Assembly (NCBI GenBank): GCA_000934665.2
Contig: KZ538894.1
Coordinates: forward strand, 1 to 62,308
DNA: 62,308 nt
Reading direction: 5' to 3'
Origin: Catajapyx aquilonaris
Lineage: Eukaryota
The notes beneath the pieces were generated by a model. It searched no databases. It saw only the letters and a list, made by a program, of their open reading frames with translations, and was not told the DNA's origin. This document shows positions 1 to 62,308 of this stretch, piece after piece. Both the position numbers and the translations under genes were made by a program. Position 1 is the stretch's first letter. Every line of letters starts with the position of its first letter.

Positions 1-1646
1 ACCCTATTTATGTGCAATTAATTTATATATCGTCATTTCCATATTCTCAACTGGGAAATATCAGGGTGAGCGAATTATTTTGGGTTTGGGCAAGTACTTA
101 TCTATATATTGCACGTGCCAGCGATATTCTCGTCATATCGAAATTAATATTGCCGCATCGATATTCAATATGAAAATCAAAACATCGCACATATCGGAGA
201 ATAGAACATGAAATACACGGTTGTAAATTCGTGTATTGTTGACTCCAGCAACCAGTGGTGCCAACATGTTGCTCCGCTTTCAACATTCCCAACTAATGAT
301 TCCTGATCCGATGACTAGGCCAGTGTGCCACCCGGTATATGACATTGGTTCCAGCTACACATTGAGGCTACTAAGTAATGTATAATATGGAGCATGCGCA
401 TGTTTCAGGCCAGAGAATGCATAAAACAGAAAGGAGCGTTCCGTTAAGTTTTTGGTCCGGAATAAGATGGTTTCCCCCCTTTTCCACCCCTCCTTTTTGG
501 CCATAGTCATCTTTGATATTGTGCCATTTCTCTTCATTTCCCTGAGGGAGCCTCCAGACTATGAGGACCAGATTGGAGGTGGAGGAGCTGACTTTGGCCT
601 CTGCCATCTTCAGAGTGCTTCACTCCCATCCCACCCACCCACCCAACCCACCCTCCTTCTGGCATATAAATAAATGACAAGACAAATAGTCGTGGAGCTG
701 CACTGCGCTCAAGCCCCGGCCGCCATGCCGATAAAACCCGGGACAGAGAAACCCACCAGAGGAATTCCCCAGCCGCTTAATATAAATAAAATAAGTCACG
801 CTGTCGGAGAACTCCCTTTTAAAAAATTGGTTCCACTTTTAGAACTAACATTTCGAGAGGGGGGAATTAGGAGCAGTGTTTCGCGACGCCAGTCTAGGAG
901 GAGGATGGAAAGCCTGCACTCCAGGACACATGGTCTGGCCACCCTGATTCCAGGGTGGCCAGCCCTGCACTGCATCTGGCAACCCTATACGTGGTTACTG
1001 CAGGTTGGCTACACTGATTCGAGCACCAGCAGCATTGCGCTGCAACCTCGGGGAAGGCCACCCTGACCCCAATTTGGCGCAGCTAGTTTCGCTCAACAAT
1101 ACAATCGAGTGTTTGAGGAAAAAAAGGCAGGGGGTGGGTGGAGTCCACAGTCAGGCAAACATGATTTGAATTTTGACTTTTACGCGTATACTGCGGGTGT
1201 ATACACGTATACGTATATCCGAGGCCTCCCCAAAATGCGCAGTGTTTGCGCCTCTTTCCAACCGGGTTAAATTGCTGACATACACACCGTTTTATTTGCA
1301 ACGGTGCAACATAATGTTGCCAGCTCAACATTGCTGCAATACTCACACTAGTCACACACACACACACTGCGGATTCCAACCCAGCACAAACACTACGTAC
1401 GGGGATTTGCAATGGCCGCATTCGTATATCTGCGCCTTCCGCGCAGGCAACCCGTTGTTCAAAAGAGGCACAATGGTCATCTACACGCCAGGATAACACG
1501 AAGGTCACACTTCCACGAAACAGTGTTCCAGTCAATAATATTGTCGCTAGTAGTAAGCTGGCTATTTTAAGCAGCTACTTTTAATGTTCTTAGCGAGATA
1601 TTAGTTATTGGCAACACTTGTAGCTGTTACCTATATTAGTTCAAGT

Positions 1647-3744: not shown

Positions 3745-4530
3745 CTGTAGTTAACAGCGACTAATGTGTCCGCTACTGTACCCTAAGCATTTAACTGCTC
3801 TAAATCGCGCCTTATGAAGCTGCTACTGTAAACCTTCCAGTGTCAAAAGCTACTCATGTAGCTGCTGTTATTTGCCACTCATAACTGCTACTGTAAGTCG
3901 CGCCATATAGCTGCTATTAATCGCTTCTCAGGGCACTGCCGCTGTTAGTAGCCAATCAGAGCTGTTACTGTTCACAGCGTTAATGTGGCTGGTCAAATAG
4001 CGTCTATTAAAACTGCTGCTGTTAATCGCCACTCGCAATTGTTACTGTTAACAGCGATCAATATAGCTGGTATAAATCACGACTCGTGACACTGCTACTG
4101 TTAATAGACACTCATACCTGTTGATGTTAACAGAGATTAATGTAGCTGGTAAAATACCGTCTAATAAAACCGCTGCTGTTAATCGCCACTAGAAACTGTT
4201 ACTGTTAACAGCGATTAATATAGTTGGTGTAAATGGCCCATAAAACTGGCATTATTAATCATCACTTATCGTTGCTATTTTAAGCATCCACGAATGTAGC
4301 AGCTGCTGTAAGTTGCGCCATTTAGCTGTTATAAATCGCCCAGAAAACGGCTACTGTTAATCACCACTTACAGCTGCTATTTTAAGCAACGACTAAATTA
4401 GCAGTTGCTGCAAGTTGCGCTATTTAACTGTTATAAATCGCTCCTCGTGAAATTGTCACTGTAAATCACCATTTCTGTAGCTGTTACTTATAATCGCGAC
4501 TCATGTAACTGTTCCTGTATACATCGTGAC
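3745..4530. repeat. Degenerate ~27-28-bp AT-rich minisatellite (gctgctactgttaa core)
   Basis: Recurrent gtagctg / ctgctactgttaa / aatcgcc motifs. Confidence 0.7.
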
Positions 4531-5249
4531 TGAATATAAGAGAATTGAGCAGACAGTTAGACTAACTTGTACGAGCGACTTAACCGTCCGTCGGTTTACA
4601 TGCTCCTTTCCAACTGGTGTACAGTATCCTGGAAGCCGAAGTGTTTGAATCCGGCAATGGCCGGAGGCTGGCAACAACAAAGTGTAATCTACGTCAGGAG
4701 TGCTTGTAATTAGGGCACCGGTAGCCAGGCCGATTAGAGCCTAGATCTGTCTGAGTTGAACCAACACTTTCTTGCTTTTTGTGTGTGTGAATGCTGCTAA
4801 GGGTATAGGTTGGGAGTCCTGAAGGCAAAACCCCGGTCCGTTTGGCTAATTTGGGCAGACAAGTCCCCGGAGCCTCATAGTCCCCTAACTGTCCGAGTGT
4901 GTACATCTGAGGGGACAACCCAGCCCAAACCCACTGCCTGACTTGCCTATTCTGGAGGCCCTCTAAAAGCGGCTTAGCCCTCAAGTGGAAAACCAGACTT
5001 CAAAGAGGGCCGGGTCCTACAACCTCACTTTTCTGCTCCACCCCCACGAGGAAAAGAAGATGGGGAAATATTCCACCACGAGTGAATCCAAAATTCTATT
5101 TGCATATGGAGGTGAATCGGATTACTCCATAGTCGATAACCCTCACTAGTCTTTAGGGATAAGATGGGGCGGAGCTTGTTTGATTAGGGGGCGTGGACAC
5201 TATGCGGGACACGCTGCTACCATCTATCGCAATGCGCCACAGAATCACT

Positions 5250-5900
5250 GACAGACGCGACTGAAGCAAACGCGATCCACAGGCATCTAAACTGCTCATT
5301 ACAGACTCTATACTAATAAGTAGTATGAGTCGCGATTTATAGCAGTTTAGATGCGTCTCGATCGCGTTTTCTTAAGTCGCGTCCGAGTCGCCTAACAGCT
5401 CTGTTACTGTCAACAGCGATTAATGTAGCTGGTATAAATTGCGTCTCATGAAACTGCTCCTGTTAAGGGCGAGTAATGTAGCTGCTACTGTTAGTAGTGA
5501 CTACTGGAGCTGCTACTGTTAGTAGTGACTAATGTCGTTCCCGACCGCGTCTGCGGCAAAATTAGATGCTATCGAGACGCGTTTAAACTGCTATAAATCG
5601 CGTCTCACGACACGTCTGCTTTTAATCGCGTCTCATAATGTAGCTGGTATCAATTATAAAACTGCTACTGTTAGTAGTGACCAATGTAGCAGCTACTGTT
5701 AGTAGTGACCAATGTAGCTGGCATAAATCGCGTCTCATAAGACTGCTACTATTAATGGCGACTAATGTAGCTGCTATTGTTAGTAGTGATTAATGTCGAT
5801 CTCGACCGCTTCTCATAAGTAGACGCGATGGAGACGCGACTCGGACGCGTCTTAATTGGACACGATCCCGAGCGTGCCTCAAACATTAGACGCGAGTGAG
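5250..5900. repeat. Mixed 28-bp minisatellite and CGCGTCTC/GAGACGCG-rich repeat
   Basis: gtagctgctactgttagtagtgactaat units at about 5470-5795, interleaved with cgcgtctc motifs in both orientations; similar motifs at 9345-9375, 9545-9575 and 40305-40365. Confidence 0.7.
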
Positions 5901-6010: not shown

Positions 6011-6654
6011 ATCACATCAGAGGGCACGACCTATTTCATAATGGCTTTTCCTACATATCTCAGTGGAAGAATTCAGTTTCCAACAGTACTAACAGAATAA
6101 TTACTCTTGTATGTTTTTGGGCAATGAAATGACCAATTTGTATTCTCATGGAAAATTCATGGAATAAGCGACAGAGAAAAAAGTTTCAACAATTTGATTA
6201 ATACGAGTTAGGCACACATTTTTTTTTCTGAGGGAGGGTTTATTCAAACGGGGATTCCCGAGGAGAAAATTGCGCGCAAATTTATTTCCCCTCATTACTG
6301 AAACTAATTATGCATTAATCTCTCTGGAGGCTGGGCCAGGCCCGAAAGTGGATGATTTTTTAAAGTAATAAATTGAGGCAACTCCGGTCCGAGTGCGGTG
6401 TGCACAACTATCAAAAATTGTGTTACACTTGTTCCATCAAAGTATAGCCATGGGAGCAAGATAATTAACGCCATCGTGTTAATGTTGAATTAATATTCAA
6501 AACAATTTTTCTTAATTAAAAAATATAAATATTACAAATAAAACCTAACGGAAAATGTTTATATCAAACATACAAATTGCACATTGAGATTATTTTTGAA
6601 CATTGTATGTACAATAAATTATTGCAAAAATGGTAAATAAAATCCATGTAAAAA

Positions 6655-6865
6655 TTCATTGCATTGTAAATGAATAATTGTTAACATTCATTGCATTGCA
6701 AATGAATAATTGTTAACATTCATTGCATTGTAAATGAATAATTGTTAACATTCATTGCATTGTAAACGAATAATTGTTAACATTCATTGCATTGTAAATG
6801 AATAATTGTTAACATTCATTGCATTGTAAACGAATAATTGTTAACATTCATTGCATTGTCAATGA
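6655..6865. repeat. 32-bp tandem repeat, about 6.5 copies
   Basis: Unit aataattgttaacattcattgcattgtaaatg, near-identical copies. Confidence 0.95.
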
Positions 6866-7299
6866 AATAAGTGTAAAAATTGGAAAGTAAAACTATAACG
6901 TCAACACTGCAAATATATTACAACTATTTTCCCCTATTGTTGAATGTATGGTACAAAATGGTAAATTTAAAGCTATTAAAATTTTAAATGAAAATACTTT
7001 GGAAATATAATTTAGAGAATTTCGAAAATCTTACAGAAACCATTTTTGCATAAAATATGAAAATTTCAAAATTATTTAAAATGATTTGAATAGCTGTTGA
7101 GAAATGTAACGCTACCTAACAATATCAATTAGCAAATAATTTAAGTTGATCATAATCTGCATTAAAAACCCGGTTTACATCCCAGAGTTCCAATTGAAAA
7201 ATATACAGCCGTGCCAAATCTCCCGACACAAATTCTCGTCAACTCGAGTCTGTAAGTTTGCGTCGACGTGACAAGATCCTTCTGAGATGTCGCACTTTT

Positions 7300-7305
<6 letters not shown>

Positions 7306-7364
<59 letters not shown>

Positions 7365-7403
7365 NNNNNNNNNNNNNNNNNNNNNNNNNNNNNNNNNNNN
7401 NNN
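7306..7403. repeat. (CT)n microsatellite running into an assembly gap
   Basis: (ct)n at 7306-7364, then 39 N at 7365-7403. Confidence 0.95.
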
Positions 7404-8076
7404 GGGGAAGAAAAAAAGAAAAGAGGGGATATAAATTGGGGCCCGTTTTGACGCCTCTCGCAGCATCGTTTTGGGGAAGAATCCTTTTAACATCCTTTCA
7501 AATTCCGTCTCTCCTGGTTGCTAGCGGTGGTTGGCAGTGCAGAAACCTGTTTTATGGATCAATAAAGTGCAGGTGTATCGCGCTGTGTGACACAATCCGG
7601 CTCTTTTTGTCCAAACCAAGTGACTAACCTTAACTCTTCCGCTTTCCAGACACTGGAGACAAAATGGACCGGATGAAAAGTCCGCCATTTTTGGTCCGAG
7701 ATAACCCACCCAGCTTTTTATCGCCCCCCTCTGTAAGGCATTGGATCAAACAAAAGGTGCTGCCATCTGAACACACGTGTTAACACATTGTTCAGCGTCC
7801 TTGACACTTTGTAAGGGAAGACAGGAGGAAATTGAACAGCGACACCTCATCTTTTCTTGTGATTCTGAGCCAGGCAAGGTGTTACATCCAAAACGCGTTT
7901 CCATTTCTGGGGAAAAGCCCTCCTGGGCCGACTGTCCAATTACATCTGCCATTTCTCCAATCAGAAGTTAAGGAAGAAATATATCGGCCCGCTAAGGATC
8001 AACCCGCTTGTAATTATTTATCCCAACAAAGGAAAAAAGGGAATCGAATCAAAGGTCAAGTTCACAGAGCCTGAAT

Positions 8077-8258
8077 GAATGAGGTCCACTACTACGGACA
8101 ACCAATAGCGATAACCGAGTGCGATAGGAAGGCCGGAAAGACACTTACATTTTCTGAGCTTCTAATCGCCCTCTGGTGTAGCTTTAATGCGGCCCACTCC
8201 GGACAACCAACAGCTATTACAGCGATAAAATCATAATCCCAACCGAGCTTCTTATCTC
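8077..8258 (+). mobile_element. Degraded copy of the 59813-60007 TIR element family
   Basis: Two cccact(c/a)cggacaacc...gcgataa motifs, as in 59813-60007. Confidence 0.6.
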
Positions 8259-8270
8259 AATTTTTATTTT

Positions 8271-8456
8271 TTCTCATCGAAAAAAGCATTGTAGAACGGC
8301 GTCCGTCCGTCCGTCTGTCTGTGGACAGGTATCAAGGCCCAAACTGTAAGAGATAGCGACAAACTGTTTAGGCGGATCCTAAGTATGTTTCGTGGTCAAC
8401 TTCCGGTGACCTGGACACTTTCGATTTTCCAGGTTCACTATCCGCCAAGGTCGAGT
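8271..8456 (+). mobile_element. DINE-1/Helentron-like non-autonomous element fragment
   Basis: (GTCC/GTCT)n microsatellite core after a T-rich start; homologous to the reverse complement of 62033-62230 (agagatagcgacaaac, aacttccggtgacc, gttcacta..tccgccaag). Confidence 0.6.
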
Positions 8457-8674
8457 CTCCAGGCGGGTATCCTTGGGTCCTTTGAAAACGGGAATAATGA
8501 GACTTACAACCCCAGACAAGATTCTATGTCATTGTTGTCCAATTTGGCTTTTCTTGGCAATAAGAAAAAGTCTACTCGAATCACGCCGGCGTGATTTACC
8601 AATCTTGTTCAGTTTCTCTCGCGTGAACATTGTGCCGTCTCAGAGGGCAGCACTGTGTATCCGGGCAAGAGGAG

Positions 8675-8755
8675 GTTACAACTGGCGCCCAACGTGGGGC
8701 AATGACTGGCGCCCAACGTGGGGTAACAACTGGCGCCCAACGTGGGGCTGTAACA
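8675..8755 (+). mobile_element. LTR-retroelement remnant: three tandem tRNA-Lys(CUU) primer-binding sites
   Basis: TGGCGCCCAACGTGGGGC at 8683-8700 and 8731-8748, and 17/18 at 8707-8724. This is the reverse complement of the 3' 18 nt of tRNA-Lys1,2 including CCA. Preceded by GTTACA-AC and followed by TGTAAC. Confidence 0.85.
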
Positions 8756-9900
8756 TACCCTGTTCGTTCCAGTCCGTTCTGCTCCATTCCTTCCACTAGT
8801 TGAGTGCAAAGGATGAGAAATCGGGGAGAACGTACGCGAGACGCATTATCATTGGCAGCTAGCCGGGATTGGTCGGAGAGCGGCTGCTAAAAGGGGAGTG
8901 CTAGGGTGAAGGGGGTGAGAGAATCCGGATGCTGACGAATGACTCTCACGACAGGGTGTGCAAAAAATGGGGGGGAAAAAGAGAAGAGGGGGTGAAAAAA
9001 GCGAGGCCCTAGTCCCGATCAATCACTCGGCGCATTTCGTGCATGAAAATGCCAACCTCAACAAGTCTCCCTCCCTCAAAAGTTGCACGTCTCTCCGGAT
9101 AAATGGGTGGAAGGAGAGGGTAGGGGAGAGAAGCTCATTTCCTTGCCCTCCCACCGAGAGCCTCCCCCCAAAACCGCTTCTCCCAGAATGCACTTCTTAG
9201 ACACTTGACAACTAGTGGTTACACTTCACCCTCACTGTAATGACGCCTCTGGAGAGAAGCGGGTTGGGACACATTCCGCACTTCAAAACGCCAAGGTTGC
9301 TCTTTACGTCTCCCAAAAGTCAGAAATAATATAGGCGAAGATACAGACGCTGTAGAGACGCGGTCGAGACGCAGTTAAAACGTGGTCGGGACTTGTCCCA
9401 CATTCCTCCCTTCAAACTTTGTTGCTCTTTCATTGCTCTCTAAAAGGGCAGGACTAATATGGGTGAAGCTACAAACCCGGTACGTGACGTGACGTGACTC
9501 CGGCTGGCTGCCCGTTATAGCAGGGTTCATAAACACATTTTCGGGATCACGTCTCGATCGCGTCTCGACCGCTTTTCCGACCCTCCAGTATCCAATCAGG
9601 GAGAGATTTCTTGCCACTTTAGGCTGATGAGATGGTAGGGCACATCACAGGAGAATGTGTTGCGCTCTCCCTGAGTGGTTGGTCATCATCTCCCCAGGCT
9701 CACAGTGGGCCTTATCTGGACGGCCATGATGCCGGACAATCGCCGCTGTCCAGCTCTGTCCGTCCGGGCCACTATCGGGCCCTTTAATGGATGCCATCTA
9801 CCCATCGCTTCATTCTCACCCTCTCTCCACATCAACACTCTAGGATAACCGCTCTGGATTGTCTCTCAATCTAATCATGTATATAGAATTGGCTCTGACT

Positions 9901-9948
9901 CTGTCCGCGATGTGCGTCATCTAGGTGAGAGATATGGTACTACGTCCA
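9901..9948 (-). mobile_element. Dispersed CTCF/AP-1-motif repeat family copy (internally deleted)
   Basis: Reverse complement ggacgtagtaccatatctctcacctagatgacgcacatcgcggacag. Confidence 0.7.
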
Positions 9949-11018
9949 AAGGGCCTGGGGTAGTGGTGCCAACATGTCGGGGTAATGTATAAGTTTCTTC
10001 TCCAAGTAATTAACCGCTGACGGTTGCATAACCATAAGTTGTGGTGCGCTAAACGGCTATTTTCAGGCCCTCTTCTGATTGGTCAATTTCCCCGTGGGGG
10101 CCCCCCTGTTTTTTTTATGTGAGGCCCACTTGGTTGGGCAATCTAATCAGGTCCAGATCGATCTACTCAGAGAGTGTATATATGTAGGGAGGTCTATCCA
10201 ACGAGGCGAGAGAGATTTTCGGCGGAGCATATTGGCAGGCTTTAGGAAGAAAACGTGTCGGCCATCTTTGGTATGGGCAGCAGCGGTACAACCCGGTACG
10301 CTTGTCATGCCCCGTACCACGCTCAAGAGGGATCAAGGGAGGGGTCCGGCTGCCTTAAAAAAAAGAAAGAAAAAGCAGGAAAAAAAAGAAGGGAGAGAGA
10401 CTTTGGCCCACCTGGTCGCGACCTGAATCCGCAAGTAAGCTACGGCTACGATTCAATAATCGCGTCTACGAAGCATCGCCGCCAGGCCGCCAGGTGAAGG
10501 GAGAACATCAAAGAAAAGACCTGGAACACATCCTGTACTGACATAAACAAATGGTAGGCTACAATCTTAGGAAAATTGGCAACACCTTTGCTTTATTTGA
10601 AACTGTGGTCGCGTGACATGGGCGCCGCCATTTTTGGTCCAGACATGATGTCGATGCAATAATTTTTGACGGTTTGTACAAGTTACTGTACAGTGTACAA
10701 CCTGCTTCATAAAGCGTATTAAGAACCGCAAACTGGTGCGGGTAATGAGCTGCATTTTTTGTTTCATTTTTTTGGGGGGCCTGACCACGAGTCTTTGAGG
10801 CTCGAAAACCTGTGCTTTGAAACAAAGTGTGCCAACAACATATTTTCCATGCCATATTTTTCCATCACTAAGCTGATCATGACCTGAAGTGTTTTGCTGA
10901 CATGTCGGTGCACCTCACTTGATACGGAGCGGTTGTTATTAACGGCAGTTTTACATGAAGCGATGCACAGGTGAGGCTGAAGTTTCAGTCACTCTAAAGC
11001 CGCTCTTGGCAACCTCGA

Positions 11019-11020
<2 letters not shown>

Positions 11021-11092
<72 letters not shown>
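11021..11092. repeat. (AAT)24 microsatellite
   Basis: Perfect trinucleotide run. Confidence 0.98.
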
Positions 11093-12064
11093 CTGCACGA
11101 ATTTGGAAGAATAATGATCGCTTCACAACCCATTGCTATCGTAGATGCACGTGGCCTCTTGAGAATTTCGAAAGAAACTTCCGGACTCTCAGTAGTCGGA
11201 AAGTGGGTTAGGTAGCCCGAACAAACACACATTTGTACAATCTTTCCAGTTTATAAATATAGAGATAATCCGCTGTGTTTGAGGCGACGTCGCTAATATA
11301 TTGTGCGAGCGACTTTAAGCCTCCTTTAACGACTTTTTTTTATTAAAAAATCTGAATATTTCGAGCCTTGTTATTCCTGATTTAACAAGCTGTTTAACTA
11401 CCTCAGGGCCAGACTTACTCTGCTCAAAAAAAAACATGGCCCAATTTTTCTTCTTTTGCAAAAAAAAAGGGGGGGGGGGGTAGGGGTTATTTCCACTCAT
11501 CAAATTAGAAGATACCCCCCTTTGCACCTCCTCTTTTTAATTTTCACTCCCTCCTTTCTCCCTCCTGCTCCTTCCCCCTCATAAATTTCTGGAGCAATAA
11601 CAAAAATACGCTTGGAAGAGAGGAATGAAGGAGCACTTTGGAACGCAATAAAAACCTAAGGGAAGTAGGGCTGGAGGTTTTATTAATCCCCCTTCTTCCC
11701 TTCTACTTTGTCTTTGGCCCATACAGGTCCTTGTCTTTCCCTACTCTTAATGGAAGGGGGGATCGTTTTACTACCTGTTTCTATATGCAGGAACCAAAGT
11801 TTATAACCAAGGACTGTTAGAACCTGTTTGAATACATCCAGTTTGTCCAGCTGAGCCCGACATGCGGAATGGGTCAGGTTGGGGACATTGTGGCGATTTA
11901 GGGCAGCAGCGAGCGATTTATTGCTAGAAGCGACTGTCGCTCGAGTTAAAATTTAAGTACTTTTAAATTCCACTTAATATCAGTTTTACTCTCTCTTTTG
12001 ATTTTAAATTTATTTGTAATTATTTCATACCTGGAATGAGTATTAGTGTTTAAGATCAAATAGT

Positions 12065-14425: not shown

Positions 14426-14716
14426 AAATCTAGAGCTATTCCAAGTAACTGTTACTAAAAGGGCCTGTTAGTAACAGTCACTTGGAATAGCTCTAGATTT
14501 AACAGTTACTTGGAATAGCTCTAGATTTCACAGTTACTTGGAATAGCTCTAGATTTCACAGTTACTTGGAATAGCTCTAGATTTCACAGTTACTTGAAAT
14601 AGCTCTAGATTTCACAGTTACTTGGAATAGCTCTAGATTTCACAGTTACTTGGAATAGCTCTAGAATACACAGTTACTTGGAATAGCTCTAGATTTAACA
14701 GTTACTTTAAATAGCT
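14426..14716. repeat. 28-bp tandem array beginning with a fold-back unit
   Basis: Unit cagttacttggaatagctctagatttca about 8x; 14426-14458 is the inverted copy of 14468-14500. Confidence 0.95.
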
Positions 14717-18087: not shown

Positions 18088-18945
18088 ATAGGGAGTCCAT
18101 ATATCGACAGATATCGATACTCAGTGATTAAAATGAATCGATTTTTTTTGTATCAACGCATTGATTCTAAGATACGTATCAACAAAAATGCGAAACTTTG
18201 AAAGATGGCTACCTAGACATGACTTTCGATATATTGATAAATGCGATTGGTCAGATATCGATATTATTTTTAATATCGAAAACATTATTTTTAGATATCA
18301 CAAATATTTTTAGATAGCAAAAATGTTATTTCTAGATATCACAAATGTTATTTGAGATATAAAAATTGTTTTAGATATCAAAAATATTATTTTAGAATAA
18401 TATCGACAAATATTATTTTTAGATATCGACAAATATTATTTTTAGATATCGACAAATATTATTTTTAGATATCGACAAACATTATTTTTAGATATCGATA
18501 AATCATATTTCTGATATCGATATGATTTTTAGCTATCGTCACGTATCGACAAGTAAGATATTTTCAGATTTCAAAAATCTTTGATTTTGATAAAAAATTA
18601 ATTTCATAAAACGATATAAATTATTTTCAGATATCGATAAAAATTATTTTAAATATCGATATCGGTAATGGTGATGGTTCGGATATCGATAAAAATTAAT
18701 TTTTTGATATCGATAATGGTAATTTTCAGATATCGATAAAAATTATTTAAAAAAATCGATCATTGTGATTTTTCAGATATCGATAAAAATTATTTTCACA
18801 TATCGATAAAAATTATTTTCAGATATCGATAAAAATTATTTTTAAATATTGATAATGGAGATTTTTCAGATATTAATAGATAATTTTTAGGTGTTAACAA
18901 AAATGACTTTAGAATATATCAAAAACCTTTCAGATATCGATATTT
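18088..18945. repeat. AT-rich GATATCGA(T/C)A tandem repeat (~22-24-bp unit)
   Basis: Units such as aaatattatttttagatatcgac and aaaaattattttcagatatcgat; about a dozen TATCGATA octamers. Confidence 0.85.
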
Positions 18946-21533: not shown

Positions 21534-23284
21534 TCATATTTTTCAAAATTGCGAATTGAGCTGACCATGCAAAATTTCGATTTTGGCGAGATTGAGCTGG
21601 CCGCTTCATTTGCAAAAAAAAAGCAATGATGGGAGATGGTGAATATAAGCACTGGAAAAGTTAGTCCCCAAGTTTTTTGGGGGAAAGCAGCCTCACTCAT
21701 CCGGTACATTGATTTTTGCAGTTCATACCAAGGCGACCCGTTTGCGGAATTTAGCAAAACCTGATAGCGGAGTCAGGGGACTATGAAAAGGGGCCGGAAG
21801 GTGGGTATAGGGGAGGGAGTGTTATGCATAGATTTTCCAAGAGAGGGGGGTGTTGCCTGAACTCAACAATGGCAAAGTCCAATAGTGGTATAGGTGGAGA
21901 GGGATAATTACATAAACTATGCAACTTCATCAACGGAATCGTTCCGCGCTTTGCACATACCCCAGCGCATGATACTGCATAGCCCAACAGACCCCCCAAA
22001 AGGGGAGGTGGGGTGGAAACATAATTATTTAAAATGCTGTTAAAACACTCCTCATGCTTTGTGTTAATTTATCGGCCTCTGCGCAACACCCCGTCTGCGA
22101 ATACTAAGGAGAAACTCGGAGGAACTATAGCAGTGGACGTAATAGCTAAGGTAAACAGCAGATGACGAGGGAAAACGTCAATTGCGCATTTTTTTTGCAA
22201 AACAACATTCATTACGAATTCACTGTAAGTAATTTATTTCTATAATATTTAGGCTTCATTCATCCTGCAAAATTCTCATTGAGATTAATGTTGCAATATT
22301 GGACGACCATTAATATTTGATTATGTTCGTTCATTTTTGCAACAGCAAATGTGATTTTTTTACGATAGTCGTGTGACATCCACTTTAAGCAGAAATTCAA
22401 TTTTCTGCCAAATTGTGGCCTTGAAGCATCGTGAGTGCAAAAAAAAAATCACCCTCATGACCATTACTCCCCCTAACATGACATGGAGGGGTGGCGCAAC
22501 CCCTGAGTTAACGCAATTAATCCTGGCGTCGTCACTAATATTCGCCAACTAGGTTTTCTACCCCGGGTCGAGTGGCCACGAACCGCGAAAATTTTTGCAA
22601 TATGGCCCCAGTCCGAAGCGGGGGAATGGAAAATTGACATCGGAACGAGGGGGGGGGGGGGGNCAGTCAGTCCAGTCACGATGTGTGGGAGGTTATAATC
22701 TGCGAGGTAATTCGCTGCTCATTTTCCGCCAAATGAAACCCATCGTCAGCACATGAGGAAGAAAATGGCCTGTAGGTTAGGTCCAAAAGGTTGTGTTTTT
22801 TTTTCGTTTCTCGGTGAAGTCCCAGCTGCCACCCACAAGTTTGCAAAAAAAAAAAGAGAGAAAGAGAGAGGAAAAGTCTCTCGGCAGCACTTGCGAATAA
22901 CACTTTGGGGAATCGAAGAAGCACCGTAAGGCAAAGGGAGGCCTTCCCCACAACTGGAATCCAATTGGAAAAGAGCGCAAAGTTTTTGGCCAGTTCCCTT
23001 GCAGATGAGCCGCAATGTCCATCAAGCCTAAATCCTCCGGGGAACAACCGCAGGGGGGAAGGGGAAGCCATCTTGGAATAGAGTTTTTTTTTGCAAAGGG
23101 GGGAAAAAAAGGTGGGGTAGTTTCCATTTCCAGGCAAAGTGTCTGAACCATTTCAGGATCCGGTTCACTTGGCGCTCTTCTTGTCATTCCGGAGATGCTT
23201 CATTACCATTCTCATCCCGGATTGTCCTCCAGGAGAGCCAACCAAAGAGTGATTGCCAAGGAATTCTTTCGTTATCCATATTCC

Positions 23285-27110: not shown

Positions 27111-27679
27111 TCAAAGTGAACCGTACCCTCGTGTAGGCACGCATGTACAGTACTGCTATGCTGGATACACCCACACAAGTATTCCAACTGTATGGCGTGT
27201 GTGTTGGTTGGGATGTGTGCATATACCCCTGGAGAGAATCGGCCAGCCTCTCTTTTCCTTTGACACATGAAGCGAAGGCAAACGCGGCCTGTTCTTGCTT
27301 GCATTGGCCCCGGGGAAAGAGAGACGGAGAGGGTGGATGGGAGGGGGGGGGGGGCTGCCCCCCCACACGCCAAGCCAGCCCCTGGGGCACCCTGTGAAAA
27401 GGGTTAACCGGGCGAGACACATGAAAGTCAAGGATTTGTTTGGCCAACCAAGCAGAGGTCCAAGAGAGAGGGTAGGCCTTAATTAAATGGCCGGGCTCGT
27501 NCCCTCTCAAAAACTGATTGACTCACTGCCCTGATCCTCCTCCTCCTCCTCATAGCCAACACTGCCCCCTCTTTATCATATTTGGACTTCTCTCCTCAAG
27601 CCTTACCCCACCACCCTCTAAGCTCACTCAAGCACGTAGCGACACTACTGGTGGGCTTCATTCTCGCATTTAATCGTGG

Positions 27680-28412
27680 TTATTACCGCTACTGCTCTTG
27701 TAAATAACAGCAATACTGCTATTTCAAAAAAATAGCAGCACTGCTACTCCAACAGCGATTTACTGAGTTGTTATTACATAATAGCAGTGATTAATGGTGC
27801 CAGTTATTCTAAACTAGCAATGATTTAGGAATACAACTGTAAAATAGCAGTTATTTTCACTCTAACTAGCAGTTATTTTTGCTTATATAACTAGCAGTTA
27901 TTTTTGCTTCTCTAACTAGCAGTTATTTCATGATATTGCTATTCCAAAATTGCAGCGATCATTGCTACTAAAAATAGTCAGTTAGTTCTCAATGCAGGTG
28001 ATCACAGAGGCCGATTATACTTCCTGCACTCAATTACTCGCCGTGCTAAGGGACACGAGGTGGTGGTAGGGAAAAGAACGATTAGTTTGTAGTTCAGTAA
28101 TCACTCTTGCTCCTTATTCTGGAAGTAGCAGCCATCATTTGATATTGTGCTTCAGAAATGGCAGGAATCACTGCACCTAAAGTTTAAACTATTAGCATTG
28201 CTCACTGCTGTTAACAATTAGCAGTGATCACTGTGCTAGTAACGAGGAGCAGTAATCAAAGCGACATTAACAACTAGCAGTGAATGTTAGCAGCTATTAG
28301 TAATCACAGTGCTATTAACACCCAGCAGTGAATAGAGCGCTGCTAACAAAGAGTAGTGATCAGTGTGATATTAACAACTAGAAATGATCACAGCGTTATT
28401 ATTAAATAGTTC
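27680..28412. repeat. Degenerate AT-rich minisatellite (tagcagt core)
   Basis: Recurrent aactagcagttatt / agcagtgatcac motifs grading into the 32-bp array. Confidence 0.65.
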
Positions 28413-29239
28413 AGTGATTATAACTACTGCTATTATTAAACAGCAGTGATTATAACTACTGCTATTATTAAATATCAGTGATTATAGCTACTGCTATTAT
28501 TAAGCAGCAGTGATTATAACTACTGCTATTATTAAACAGCAGTGATTATAACTACTGCTATTATTAAACAGCAGTGATTATAACTACTGCTATTATTAAA
28601 CAGCAGTGATTATAACTACTGCTATTATTAAACAGCAGTGATTATAACTGTTGTTTAATAGCAGGGATTATAGCTACTGCTATTATTAAATAGCAGTGAT
28701 TATAACTACTGCTATTTCCCAACGGAATTGATCACGTTTTCGTCAATAGCTATTATTAAACTGCAGTGATTATAACTACTGCTATTATTAAATAGCAGTA
28801 GCTTAACCACTGCTATTTAATAATAGCAGTAGTTATAATCACTGCTGTTTAATAATAGCTATTGACGAAAACGTGATCAATTCCGTTGGGAAATAGCAGT
28901 AGTTATAATCACTGCTATTTAATAATAGCAGAAGTTATAATCACTGCTAATTAATAATAGCAGTAGCTATAATCCCTGCTATTAAACAGCAGTGATTATA
29001 ACTACTGCTATTATTAAACAGCAGTGATTATAACTACTGCTATTATTAAATAGCAGTGGTTATAGCTACTGCAATTATTAAATAGCAGGGATTATAACTA
29101 CTGCTATTATTAAACAGCAGTGATTATAACTACTGCTATTATTAAACAGCAGTGATTATAACTACTGCTATTATTAAATAGCAGTGATTATAACTACTGC
29201 TATTTCCCAACGGAATTGATCACGTTTTCGTCAATAGCT
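28412..29239. repeat. 32-bp tandem array with an internal inversion
   Basis: Unit gtgattataactactgctattattaaacagca; inverted block at about 28810-28990; unique 35-mer present three times. Confidence 0.95.
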
Positions 29240-53606: not shown

Positions 53607-53798
53607 CGGAAAGGAAAGGAAGGAGGCGGCTGCGGCCTATTAGTTTAGGAAACAACTCTGGAATTCTCCTGGAGGAACCGTGGGAAACCACAGAAAACCA
53701 CGGTTGGAGTTGCCGGCACCGGGATTCGAACTCAGGACCACCCGATTAGCAGTCGGATACCATATCCCCTCCGCCACCAGCCCACCACTGCTTCGGTA
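53607..53798 (-). mobile_element. tRNA-derived SINE, family 2
   Basis: Minus strand: tRNA-like head with anticodon arm ccga-ctgctaa-tcgg and B-box GAGTTCGAATCCC, body gtggttttctgtggtttccc...taggccgcagccgcctccttcc resembling widespread arthropod SINE bodies; TSD aaataatataa at 53596-53606 / 53799-53809. Confidence 0.8.
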
Positions 53799-59220: not shown

Positions 59221-59812
59221 TAAGAGACAGGGATTAGGTTTAAACCTTACTAACCAGGGGTTTAGCGTGGACTAAATCGTGACGTCGCTCAGTGTATCCA
59301 AGAGCGCCAACCGTTGTTTCGCCCAAATTTTAACGAACCATTAAGAGCTAACGACAGTTTGGGACATGTCAACAGCATGAGTTAACGGTCAGTTAACTGT
59401 AGTTGTTCCGGGTTGCAGTTTTTCACCCCATAAAGAGCCGGGGATAACGAATATTTACTGGTCTGAAAGTTTTACAGTGGTGGAAAAAGCAGAGATCTTG
59501 TCCCATTATCGCTTGATGATCATCCAATAATGGGTGGGTTTGACGATGTTTGACCCCCTGTAAACACCCGTTTTAGTGCCCCCGAAGTAAAACTTTGAAA
59601 ACGGCCCTTGCAGGAGGAAGCTCCTCCATTTTGTGTCTGGTCCCAAAGTTGCTCCAAAATGACTTTTTGATCCACATCGGTTTGAAGGAAAGAGCTAATC
59701 AAAAAGCTGTTATTTGTTGGCTAAACTGATAATCAAACCCTCCTCAGGTACTTGGTAAGTAAAGAGAGAGAGAGAAAAAAACATTGCGTAAACATGTTGG
59801 CAGCTTATCTGA

Positions 59813-60007
59813 ATGCAACCCACTCCGGACAACCTAAAGCGATAATCCTGAGTGCGATAAAAAGCTCGAAAAGATTTTTCCTAACAGTCATAGTCGCGCT
59901 TACATAAGTGCAACCCACTCCGGACAACCTAATGCGATAACTTGAGGGCGATAATAGGCTCTGAATAATGCTTCTTATCGCACTGAGTTGTCCGTAGTGG
60001 GTGGCAT
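59813..60007. mobile_element. TIR MITE (PIF/Harbinger-like), TGA 3-bp TSD
   Basis: ATGCAACCCACTCCGGACAAC / GTTGTCCGTAGTGGGTGGCAT (19/21), TGA on both sides, internal second left-end copy near 59910. Confidence 0.65.
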
Positions 60008-61040: not shown

Positions 61041-62032
61041 TTTCCAGCTATAGTTTTGCATTGTTATACCTGTGTTTATGACCTACCCTATATACACTAG
61101 TCCCTGTTCAAAAGGTGCAAATCAATGTGCAATTCGGGACGTGTGTGTCAGAGAGAGTGGAAACCAAACACGTGTCGCATGTTGCCAACCTTATAATTTG
61201 GCTAGGACCAATCCCATTTTAACCCTTACTCTGCAGAAATTCCAGTCTGGAATCCCCAACTCTGTTTTTATTGTTTCTTTTTCTATAGTGGAAAGTGCCA
61301 GTTGTGCTGAGGCCATAACACCATTGGTGGACGGAAAGGTGTTGCCTGGTGGAATGATCGCCACTGAATTTTCGCTCGCAAAAAAAAAACACCCCGCGCT
61401 TTTTATTGGCCAACTCTCCCTATACCCTTTATGGAGTTATGTTTCATCTACAAGCCTCTGAGCCCCCCCTTTTCCCTTCCATCTAGGATCATTTCAGGCC
61501 TGCAGATATATCGATTCTGTCTGAAGGTGCTGATAGCTCTCTACCCTCCAGCTTCCGCCATCAAAATATGGGGAGGTTGAGGGGGGGCAGAAAAAAGATA
61601 AAGGGAACGATTGGAGGGAATTGTAAGGCAAAAGGACTGATAAAAACATGATGGACACACTTTGATGTCTCGTCCCATTCTATTTCCAACCCTGATATAA
61701 AGGATGTCTGGCCCATAAGACTGGACACTGATGACTTACTGGCTGAGACTTCGTATGGGGATACTGTGAAGATGTCCAACATATAGGTTTTGGTTTGATA
61801 AGAACATAACCAAAGCAACAAATATGGCTAATCTGGCTATCCGAAGACACAAAGGTGTGAGAGATATGGTGAGAGAAACGAAAAGAAAACAAGAACGGGA
61901 AATAGCGTGATTCGAGTAGATTTTTTTCTCATTGGGGTGCGGGAAATGAGGCTGACAAACCCGATACGATGCGAATCTAATAGGATAACAATGACCTCGA
62001 TTGTGATGCAAAGTAACCATATTTAAACAGTA

Positions 62033-62230
62033 ACTCGATCTTGGCGGATATAGTGAACGCAGAAAACCGGAAGTCGCGGGTCACCGGAAGTTGGTGATGA
62101 AATCTATTTTGTTCACGGTGAATCCGAATCCGAAAACTGTTTGTCGCTATCTCTAGCGGTTTAGACCCTGATACATGTCCACAGACGGACGGACAGAGAC
62201 GTGCTAGAAGCCTTTTTTTCGACGAGAAAA
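62033..62230 (-). mobile_element. DINE-1/Helentron-like non-autonomous element fragment, copy 2
   Basis: Reverse complement aligns to 8271-8456, including the (GTCC)n core. Confidence 0.6.
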
Positions 62231-62308
62231 AGTCTAAAAGAAGAGAAGAAAGTATGGCTGTGCGATATGATACATCGACTAGCTGTCGATACGATATTTT
62301 CCTAATAT

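Follow-up and report, generated by a model that had tools for sequence, protein, structure and literature searches.

LTR retroelements primed by tRNA-Lys(1,2), such as Ty3/gypsy and BEL/Pao elements, foamy viruses and SERV, share one 17/18-mer as primer-binding site (PBS), which lies behind an LTR terminus of the type ...ACA and a spacer of 1-3 nt. The locus described here has the same 17/18-mer, the same type of terminus and a spacer within that range, but while those elements have a single PBS it has three, and it comes without LTR body, PPT and genes. Several complete PBS in one leader are reportedly also a feature of the retroviral vectors with two PBS that were engineered by Voronin and Pathak in 2004, and dual initiation is said, by the title of that work, to be frequent; these vectors are, however, artificial and the sites lie inside complete vectors. 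Tandem duplication of the minisatellite type likewise yields head-to-tail units with substitutions, as in the 24-bp units seen here, and the window, i.e., the whole stretch of 62,308 nucleotides from Catajapyx aquilonaris that was analysed, contains 22 other arrays with periods of 21-36 bp. The difference is that the unit of this locus holds a complete retroelement primer site, and slippage is a putative mechanism. In the literature within reach of our search, outside which most subscription journals lie, no description of a natural element with tandem identical PBS copies was found.

Three further systems share single traits with the locus. In the accessible parts of the reports on FIV (PMC3292463) and on rice PopRice (PMC5338827), imperfect 2-LTR circle junctions resemble it in having a PBS between a U5-type CA end and a U3-type TG start; they are, however, built from two copies of one LTR with one partial or whole PBS, whereas the flanks in the window are unique, unlike each other and enclose three. 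More than one site for one primer tRNA is also found in Gypsy and Ty3, where, according to the available text of PMC1635307, one 11-nt tRNA site is situated at either end of the genomic RNA and the two sites pair with separate regions of the tRNA; this is no tandem of identical copies. In mouse, LTR elements are repressed by 3' tRNA fragments (3'-tRFs) that act through the PBS, and sites derived from it are under regulation in domesticated elements, as described in the accessible part of PMC12853362. An orphaned PBS could pair with such fragments in the same way. The mouse targets, in transcripts of domesticated LTR retrotransposons, are single and lie in expressed 5' UTRs, however, while the site in the window is triple and known from DNA alone.

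In the window, three exact head-to-tail copies of TGGCGCCCAACGTGGGG start at 8683, 8707 and 8731 of the + strand, at a spacing of 24 bp (Table 1). Tandem Repeats Finder (TRF) describes the array with a period of 24, 3.0 copies, 87 % matches, 0 indels and a score of 121. These three are the only matches of the 17-mer in the window, even when up to 2 mismatches are allowed; the chance expectation is 0.01, and three matches were reached in 0 of 100 shuffles. The triple 18-mer, the 24-bp period and the differing linkers are all as an earlier, sequence-only reading of this DNA had described them, and so are GTTACA-AC before the array (8675-8682) and TGTAAC directly after it (8749-8754). Units 1 and 3 are identical at 23 of 24 positions; between units 1 and 2 there are three differences, all transitions, of which two lie in the linker and the third at base 18 of the PBS. 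In a separate comparison (repeat family D13), the identity to 8674-8700 is 96 % for 8722-8748 and 81 % for 8698-8724. Two of the three substitutions of unit 2 thus fall into the 6 linker positions (p ~0.16, binomial, by hand); this is no significant concentration outside the PBS, so that neither selection nor re-copying from the tRNA is required.

Table 1. Features of the tandem PBS array and its immediate borders (positions in the window)
Feature	Position	Strand	Basis or remark
GTTACA, LTR-3'-end-like hexamer (TG...CA type terminus)	8675-8680	+	sequence
AC spacer between LTR-like end and PBS copy 1	8681-8682	+	sequence
PBS copy 1, 18 nt, TGGCGCCCAACGTGGGGC, 18th base C	8683-8700	+	complement of tRNA-Lys(CUU) 3' end + CCA
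Linker 1, AATGAC	8701-8706	+	two transitions vs ACAAC context of units 1 and 3
PBS copy 2, 17/17 exact, 18th base T in place of C	8707-8724	+	sequence
Linker 2, AACAAC	8725-8730	+	repeats the ACA-AC context 5' of copy 1
PBS copy 3, 18 nt exact, 18th base C	8731-8748	+	sequence
TGTAAC, exact inverse of GTTACA	8749-8754	+	directly 3' of copy 3
Whole array, 3.0 units x 24 bp (ACAAC + 18-nt PBS + 1)	8678-8748	+	Tandem Repeats Finder
Unit 1 (TRF frame), ACAAC-PBS-A	8678-8701	+	
Unit 2 (TRF frame), ATGAC-PBS(T18)-A	8702-8725	+	
Unit 3 (TRF frame), ACAAC-PBS-T	8726-8749	+	
Unique 65-bp stretch from end of high-copy repeat (8609) to hexamer	8610-8674	+	possible U5 remnant, putative

That the 18-mer is the complement of the tRNA-Lys 3' end plus CCA, as the sequence-only reading had stated, is supported in two ways. 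ARAGORN, run on four metagenomic loci (L023, L040, L064 and L072), calls a 76-nt tRNA-Lys(ctt) at 601-676 (-) of L040, the last 17 bases of which, including CCA, complement the 17-mer match at 601-617 (+); and the PBS of human foamy virus is the identical 17-mer, according to the available text of PMC3386198. All three exact 17-mers of the array are therefore complementary to a host tRNA 3' end with CCA, as is expected of an LTR element. Of the other three metagenomic loci, L023 has a degenerate tRNA-like call whose end coincides with the match and L064 a tRNA-Lys elsewhere in the locus, while L072 has no call. The 17-mer is continued by ...CGAACCC(A/G)...GACCCTGAGATTAA, i.e., the tRNA body, in L023, L040 and L072, and by a degenerate form of it in L064. 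Since the 17-mer continues into the tRNA-Lys body, these four are read not as primer-binding sites but as copies of tRNA-Lys with its CCA, either retro-copied tRNA or tRNA-derived repeats; AAAATAA precedes three of them. A tRNA retro-copy or a tRNA-derived SINE is out for the array, where the copies are followed by AATGAC, AACAAC and TGTAAC and no tRNA body. With nothing of the tRNA past base 18, the copies in the window are of the PBS type. Neither ARAGORN nor Rfam finds a tRNA at the array, and Rfam at gathering thresholds has 0 matches across the window. ARAGORN also reports a 71-nt tRNA-Ser(gct) at 53711-53781 (-), where Rfam at the gathering score has no tRNA, as anywhere in the window. 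A serine tRNA of 71 nt would be without the long variable arm, and the call is probably false or a tRNA-derived repeat.

Five public runs are listed, none of them recorded as RNA, and the window stretch occurs in four of them, all from one sample and one study, possibly the source of the window. Logan contigs of the runs X1, X3 and X4 (sample S1) and X5 (another sample) were aligned to 7404-10400 at a likeness of at least 80 %. In each of X1, X3 and X4 (3/3), one contig of 2490 bases spans 8554-10400 with 0 differing letters and 0 gaps; contig depth at 8804-9303 is 17.7, 28.3 and 26, respectively, and about 18, 22 and 21 in the unique flank 7404-8103. X5 matches only pieces of the neighbouring high-copy repeat, the array lying outside its coverage. 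Because the linkers differ, every 31-mer across the array should be unique and a de Bruijn assembler unable to inflate the number of copies, and the presence of the same array in three separately assembled runs means that the triplication is no artefact of one assembler. The triplication is real in the one sample S1. The sequence-only reading had foreseen that reads with a single PBS would expose an assembly artefact, but the contigs of three runs of this sample carry three. One could still suppose that assembly or sequencing has distorted a true locus with one PBS, given that all supporting runs go back to one sample, possibly the window's source, and that an N-run at 7365-7403 reveals a gapped assembly nearby; against the spanning contigs of unique depth and the unique 31-mers, this is scarcely credible. 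None of the joints listed (15 of 26; Logan contigs) skips 24 or 48 bases at the array. One or two further Logan contigs per run align over 8696-8727 with small indels. They might represent other multi-PBS loci, which would favour a family trait, or elements with one PBS whose alignment runs over a linker; single-PBS metagenomic loci align in like manner, e.g., L009 over 8714-8749. A (CT)31 microsatellite within 7302-7403 abuts the 39-base N-run, an assembly gap 1.3 kb to the left of the array, and single Ns are found at 22663 and at 27501.

The sequence-only reading had placed the array between LTR-like termini and considered an aberrant LTR-LTR junction, in which a U5 would end at 8680 and a U3 start at 8749 with retained primer copies between them, either in tandem LTRs or in a circle-junction-like product. 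This idea draws on the hexamer and its exact inverse at the two borders, on a further GGTTACA at 9217-9223, which would delimit a candidate LTR of 475 bp (8749-9223), and on the circle junctions with PBS remnants known from the accessible parts of PMC3292463 and PMC5338827. However, self-BLAST (7500-10500 at word 9, 8150-8700 at word 7) found no partner for 8610-8680 or 8749-9300 in the 62-kb window and no resemblance of the left and right flanks to each other or to anything elsewhere in the window, so that only the terminal hexamers fit. In the Logan contigs of the one sample, at a likeness of at least 80 %, the flank 8750-9300 is single copy, no paralogue pieces or variant rows are listed for 8610-8682, and no other family copies of the presumed LTR are seen, the depth at 8804-9303 being that of unique DNA; two ends of one LTR family are not what these flanks look like there. 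TGTAAC is no more frequent in the window than expected (24 matches vs 32.7), a second GTTACA within ~1.4 kb would turn up by chance in ~1/10 to 1/3 of cases by our estimate, and no PBS follows 9223. Moreover, none of the 83 ORFs of at least 95 aa in the whole window contains a retroelement Pfam family, the only hits being two unrelated ones below the curated cut-offs; the six read-through frames of 8750-11751 contain 0 families, and only six stop-to-stop ORFs of the window reach 150 aa. As there is no 3' LTR, there is also no position for a PPT. The absence of a second LTR, a PPT and internal genes, remarked upon by the sequence-only reading itself, thus held up in the self-BLAST and Pfam searches. 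As far as the data reach, the flanks are not LTR-derived and the triplication would be a one-off duplication, which is the very case that this reading had set against itself. A junction between two LTRs is close to refuted and strikes us as most improbable.

The left border deserves separate attention. In form, GTTACA followed by AC is a typical LTR-end/PBS junction. For comparison, we used 118 sites with the 17-mer in the 117 loci listed for metagenome_contigs, where at least that number exist. Among the matches listed, ACA is found 0-4 nt upstream of the PBS at 63/118 sites, with a spacer of 1 nt in 32 and of 2 nt in 20 of them, GTTACA at 10/118, and C as the 18th base at 105/118. In random sequence ACA would be expected at ~8 % and GTTACA at ~0.1 % of sites by our own estimate. 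Frequencies so far above this expectation make it very probable that unit 1 is of retroelement descent and not the copy of a tRNA alone. The hexamer and spacer that a PBS 0-5 nt after an LTR ending in ...CA would show are present, but no LTR body is seen upstream of them, where 65 bp of unique sequence are preceded by the unrelated high-copy repeat that ends at 8609. When 7404-10400 was compared by BLAST with the metagenomic loci (best 60 of 372 rows), similarity was confined to 8667-8754, apart from two matches of 14-17 nt. As to the right border, an exact inverse hexamer at that one position has a chance of ~1 in 4096. A U5-leader stem that closes the PBS loop is known for retroviruses, and TGTAAC may form the leader side of one or may match by chance. 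Inverted repeats of at least 6 nt within 16 nt on either side of the PBS occur at 7/118 sites among the matches listed, compared with 2.8 +/- 1.7 (maximum 9 in 200) in a shuffled re-pairing control, and L077 has a 12-nt stem around its PBS. The RNA fold of 8655-8775 is no better than that of shuffles (z = +0.53), 141/200 of which equal or surpass it.

Two exact 17-mers 1-30 nt apart are found neither in all of metagenome_contigs nor in viral_contigs, collections that contain the single 17-mer at at least 117 and at 32 loci, respectively, and arrays of this kind must thus be rare. Among the matches listed, one exact copy per locus is present in 32/32 viral_contigs and 116/117 metagenome loci, the exception (L029) having an inverted pair 460 bp apart. 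No tight triple of perfect PBS copies was seen in either collection. Looser duplications were observed. L030 has a 47-nt block (LTR-like end + tRNA-Lys PBS + 8 nt) twice in direct orientation, at 241-287 and 578-625; the blocks are 338 nt apart and 95-96 % identical, with further 140-nt-spaced duplications between them. In seven loci (L022, L034, L041, L084, L086, L099 and L112), the exact PBS is preceded at a distance of 56-60 nt by a PBS-like 17-mer that carries 3-4 substitutions. They form a multi-copy family in invertebrate-associated metagenomes, to which L091 probably also belongs. The second, PBS-like copy in this family is preceded by a GCGACA-type end and a third TGGCGCCC start lies further upstream; the arrangement looks like an old tandem duplication of an LTR-end + PBS module that was kept across copies. 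A second copy that differs by 4 substitutions is present in four additional loci, about the number to be expected by chance (~1.7 per 117 loci on our estimate). L030 and the seven-locus family indicate that the PBS region is sometimes duplicated in real elements.

The explanation that we prefer, with a probability of roughly 60 %, is that the array is an orphan U5-end/PBS remnant in single-copy DNA that was expanded by ordinary local tandem duplication. A remnant of a tRNA-Lys(CUU)-primed LTR retroelement would have arrived in single-copy DNA, of which only the last U5 bases, the 2-nt spacer and the 18-nt PBS would still be recognisable. The 24-bp unit (ACAAC + PBS + 1 base) would then have been copied head to tail into three units. 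Slippage during replication, unequal exchange or error-prone end joining could have done so, and many 21-36-bp arrays of the region presumably arose in a similar way; the middle unit would later have gained its three transitions. Both the retroelement origin of unit 1 and the placing of the duplication at the DNA level after insertion are what we infer from the pattern. What is seen in the array is what tandem duplication and minisatellites produce: a constant period that includes the linker, head-to-tail order and divergence between whole units. TRF periods of 21-36 bp account for 25/51 rows in the window, which merge into 23 arrays of 4158 bp in all (6.7 % of the window); with the window so crowded, it is not surprising genome-wide that an orphan PBS was caught in one. 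The copied unit carries 5-6 non-tRNA bases (LTR-like end and spacer), as fits the plain duplication of a 24-bp block, so that the iterated strong-stop transfers invoked by the sequence-only reading are not needed. Its remark that each unit stops at about 18 nt is right in that the match to the tRNA ends there, but it is no independent evidence, since it follows from the length of the unit. Certain facts sit less easily with a tandemly duplicated remnant. All 51 core PBS bases are perfect, yet at a likeness of at least 80 % the Logan contigs include no relative of the presumed LTR; decay would be expected of an old insertion and surviving relatives of a young one, which would imply a moderate age and a lost family or a fragment that arrived alone. 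In addition, the inverse hexamer after the array is explained only as a U5-leader stem partner or by coincidence, and the absence of tandem copies from two collections makes such arrays rare. Nothing indicates a present function of the array.

Reverse transcriptase might instead have made the multimer before integration, either by switching templates within the leader of a retroelement's RNA or cDNA, or by copying the 18-nt tRNA-Lys end several times, each time as far as the m1A58 stop. What entered the chromosome would then have been a truncated element or a short cDNA (U5-PBS, strong-stop-like) that was captured at a break. Capture of a short fragment would explain why LTR body, genes and 3' LTR are missing, and this route agrees with the fact that every PBS is a perfect 17-mer while the variation lies in the linkers and at base 18, beside the position of the m1A58 stop. 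The U5-end/PBS block duplications of L030 and the seven-locus metagenomic family point the same way, as do the PBS pieces kept in imperfect 2-LTR circle junctions of FIV and rice PopRice (accessible parts of PMC3292463 and PMC5338827). A donor family should have left U5 relatives, however, and none is found at 80 % likeness or more in the Logan contigs; the identical ACAAC linkers in units 1 and 3 are better accounted for by copying of a unit than by untemplated additions, and 21-36-bp arrays form frequently in this region with no reverse transcriptase involved. Nor is there a target-site duplication, the longest word shared by the flanks being 6 nt, a length reached in 59 % of 500 shuffles. 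Taken together, an origin by reverse transcription appears unlikely. A different proposal, which the sequence-only reading also raised, is that the array works as a multivalent site: within a transcript of the host or of an element, it would offer tRNA-Lys, or the 18-22-nt fragments of its 3' end, a triple target or decoy. Three perfect PBS in unique DNA and the existence of a 3'-tRF/PBS repression pathway in mouse (accessible part of PMC12853362) would be in keeping with this, but no gene or ORF context was found in the window, the RNA fold is unremarkable as given above, and the pattern of substitutions requires no selection. A functional site would thus be very improbable, and we give even less credence to its extreme version, a retained three-site landing pad in host RNA for tRNA-Lys(CUU) or its 18-22-nt 3' fragments, acting as multivalent target or sponge, with selection behind the 51 perfect bases.

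PBS remnants as such are a known kind of sequence, and a remnant in tandem triplicate would appear, from its absence in two public collections, to be a rare curiosity. If the array did arise by tandem duplication of an orphan remnant, it matters little beyond showing that a PBS can be caught in the formation of a minisatellite and that perfect orphan copies can persist. It nevertheless calls for some caution in annotation, as LTR finders and tRF-target predictors keyed on the PBS would score the locus highly where there is no element. The array would matter more as a family trait with several working PBS, as the fossil of a strong-stop template switch or as an expressed multi-target of tRNA fragments, none of which is supported so far.

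The surroundings of the array are rich in other repeats. An unrelated repeat of 361-363 bp and very high copy number occupies 8249-8609, with a summed contig depth in the thousands; in each run, 53-57 contigs part from the window sequence immediately behind 8609 and lead into AT-rich DNA. A second copy lies in opposite orientation at 61888-62250, with ~71-75 % identity and no PBS beside it. The minus strand of the first copy ends in an A-rich tail, from which the repeat is probably a SINE-like element; it has no clear terminal inverted repeat or target-site duplication. A chimeric retrocopy, made by a LINE reverse transcriptase that switched from this repeat, at its 5' end, to tRNA-Lys ends, would have the right polarity, yet it was rejected: 65-73 unrelated bases separate the repeat from the array, 53-57 further copies in each run stop at 8609 and give way to unrelated AT-rich DNA, the copy at 61888-62250 has no adjacent PBS, and no target-site duplication was found. 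To the left of the high-copy repeat, a low-copy repeat of ~105 bp occurs twice in tandem (8091-8115 / 8196-8220, within 8078-8259) and again at 59812-59982. The density of minisatellites is unusual, with examples at 6647-6881 (32 bp x 7.3), 14474-14716 (28 bp x 8.7), 18263-18855 (23 bp x 26) and 28397-29204 (32 bp x 25). To the right of the array, 11-bp units of the GAGACGCGGT type form an inverted repeat (9355-9387 / 9545-9577, within 9345-9577) with 76 % complementarity, and 4000-5900 is filled by similar CGCGTCTC-rich 28-bp arrays and inverted repeats; the two regions probably represent another, foldback-like family.
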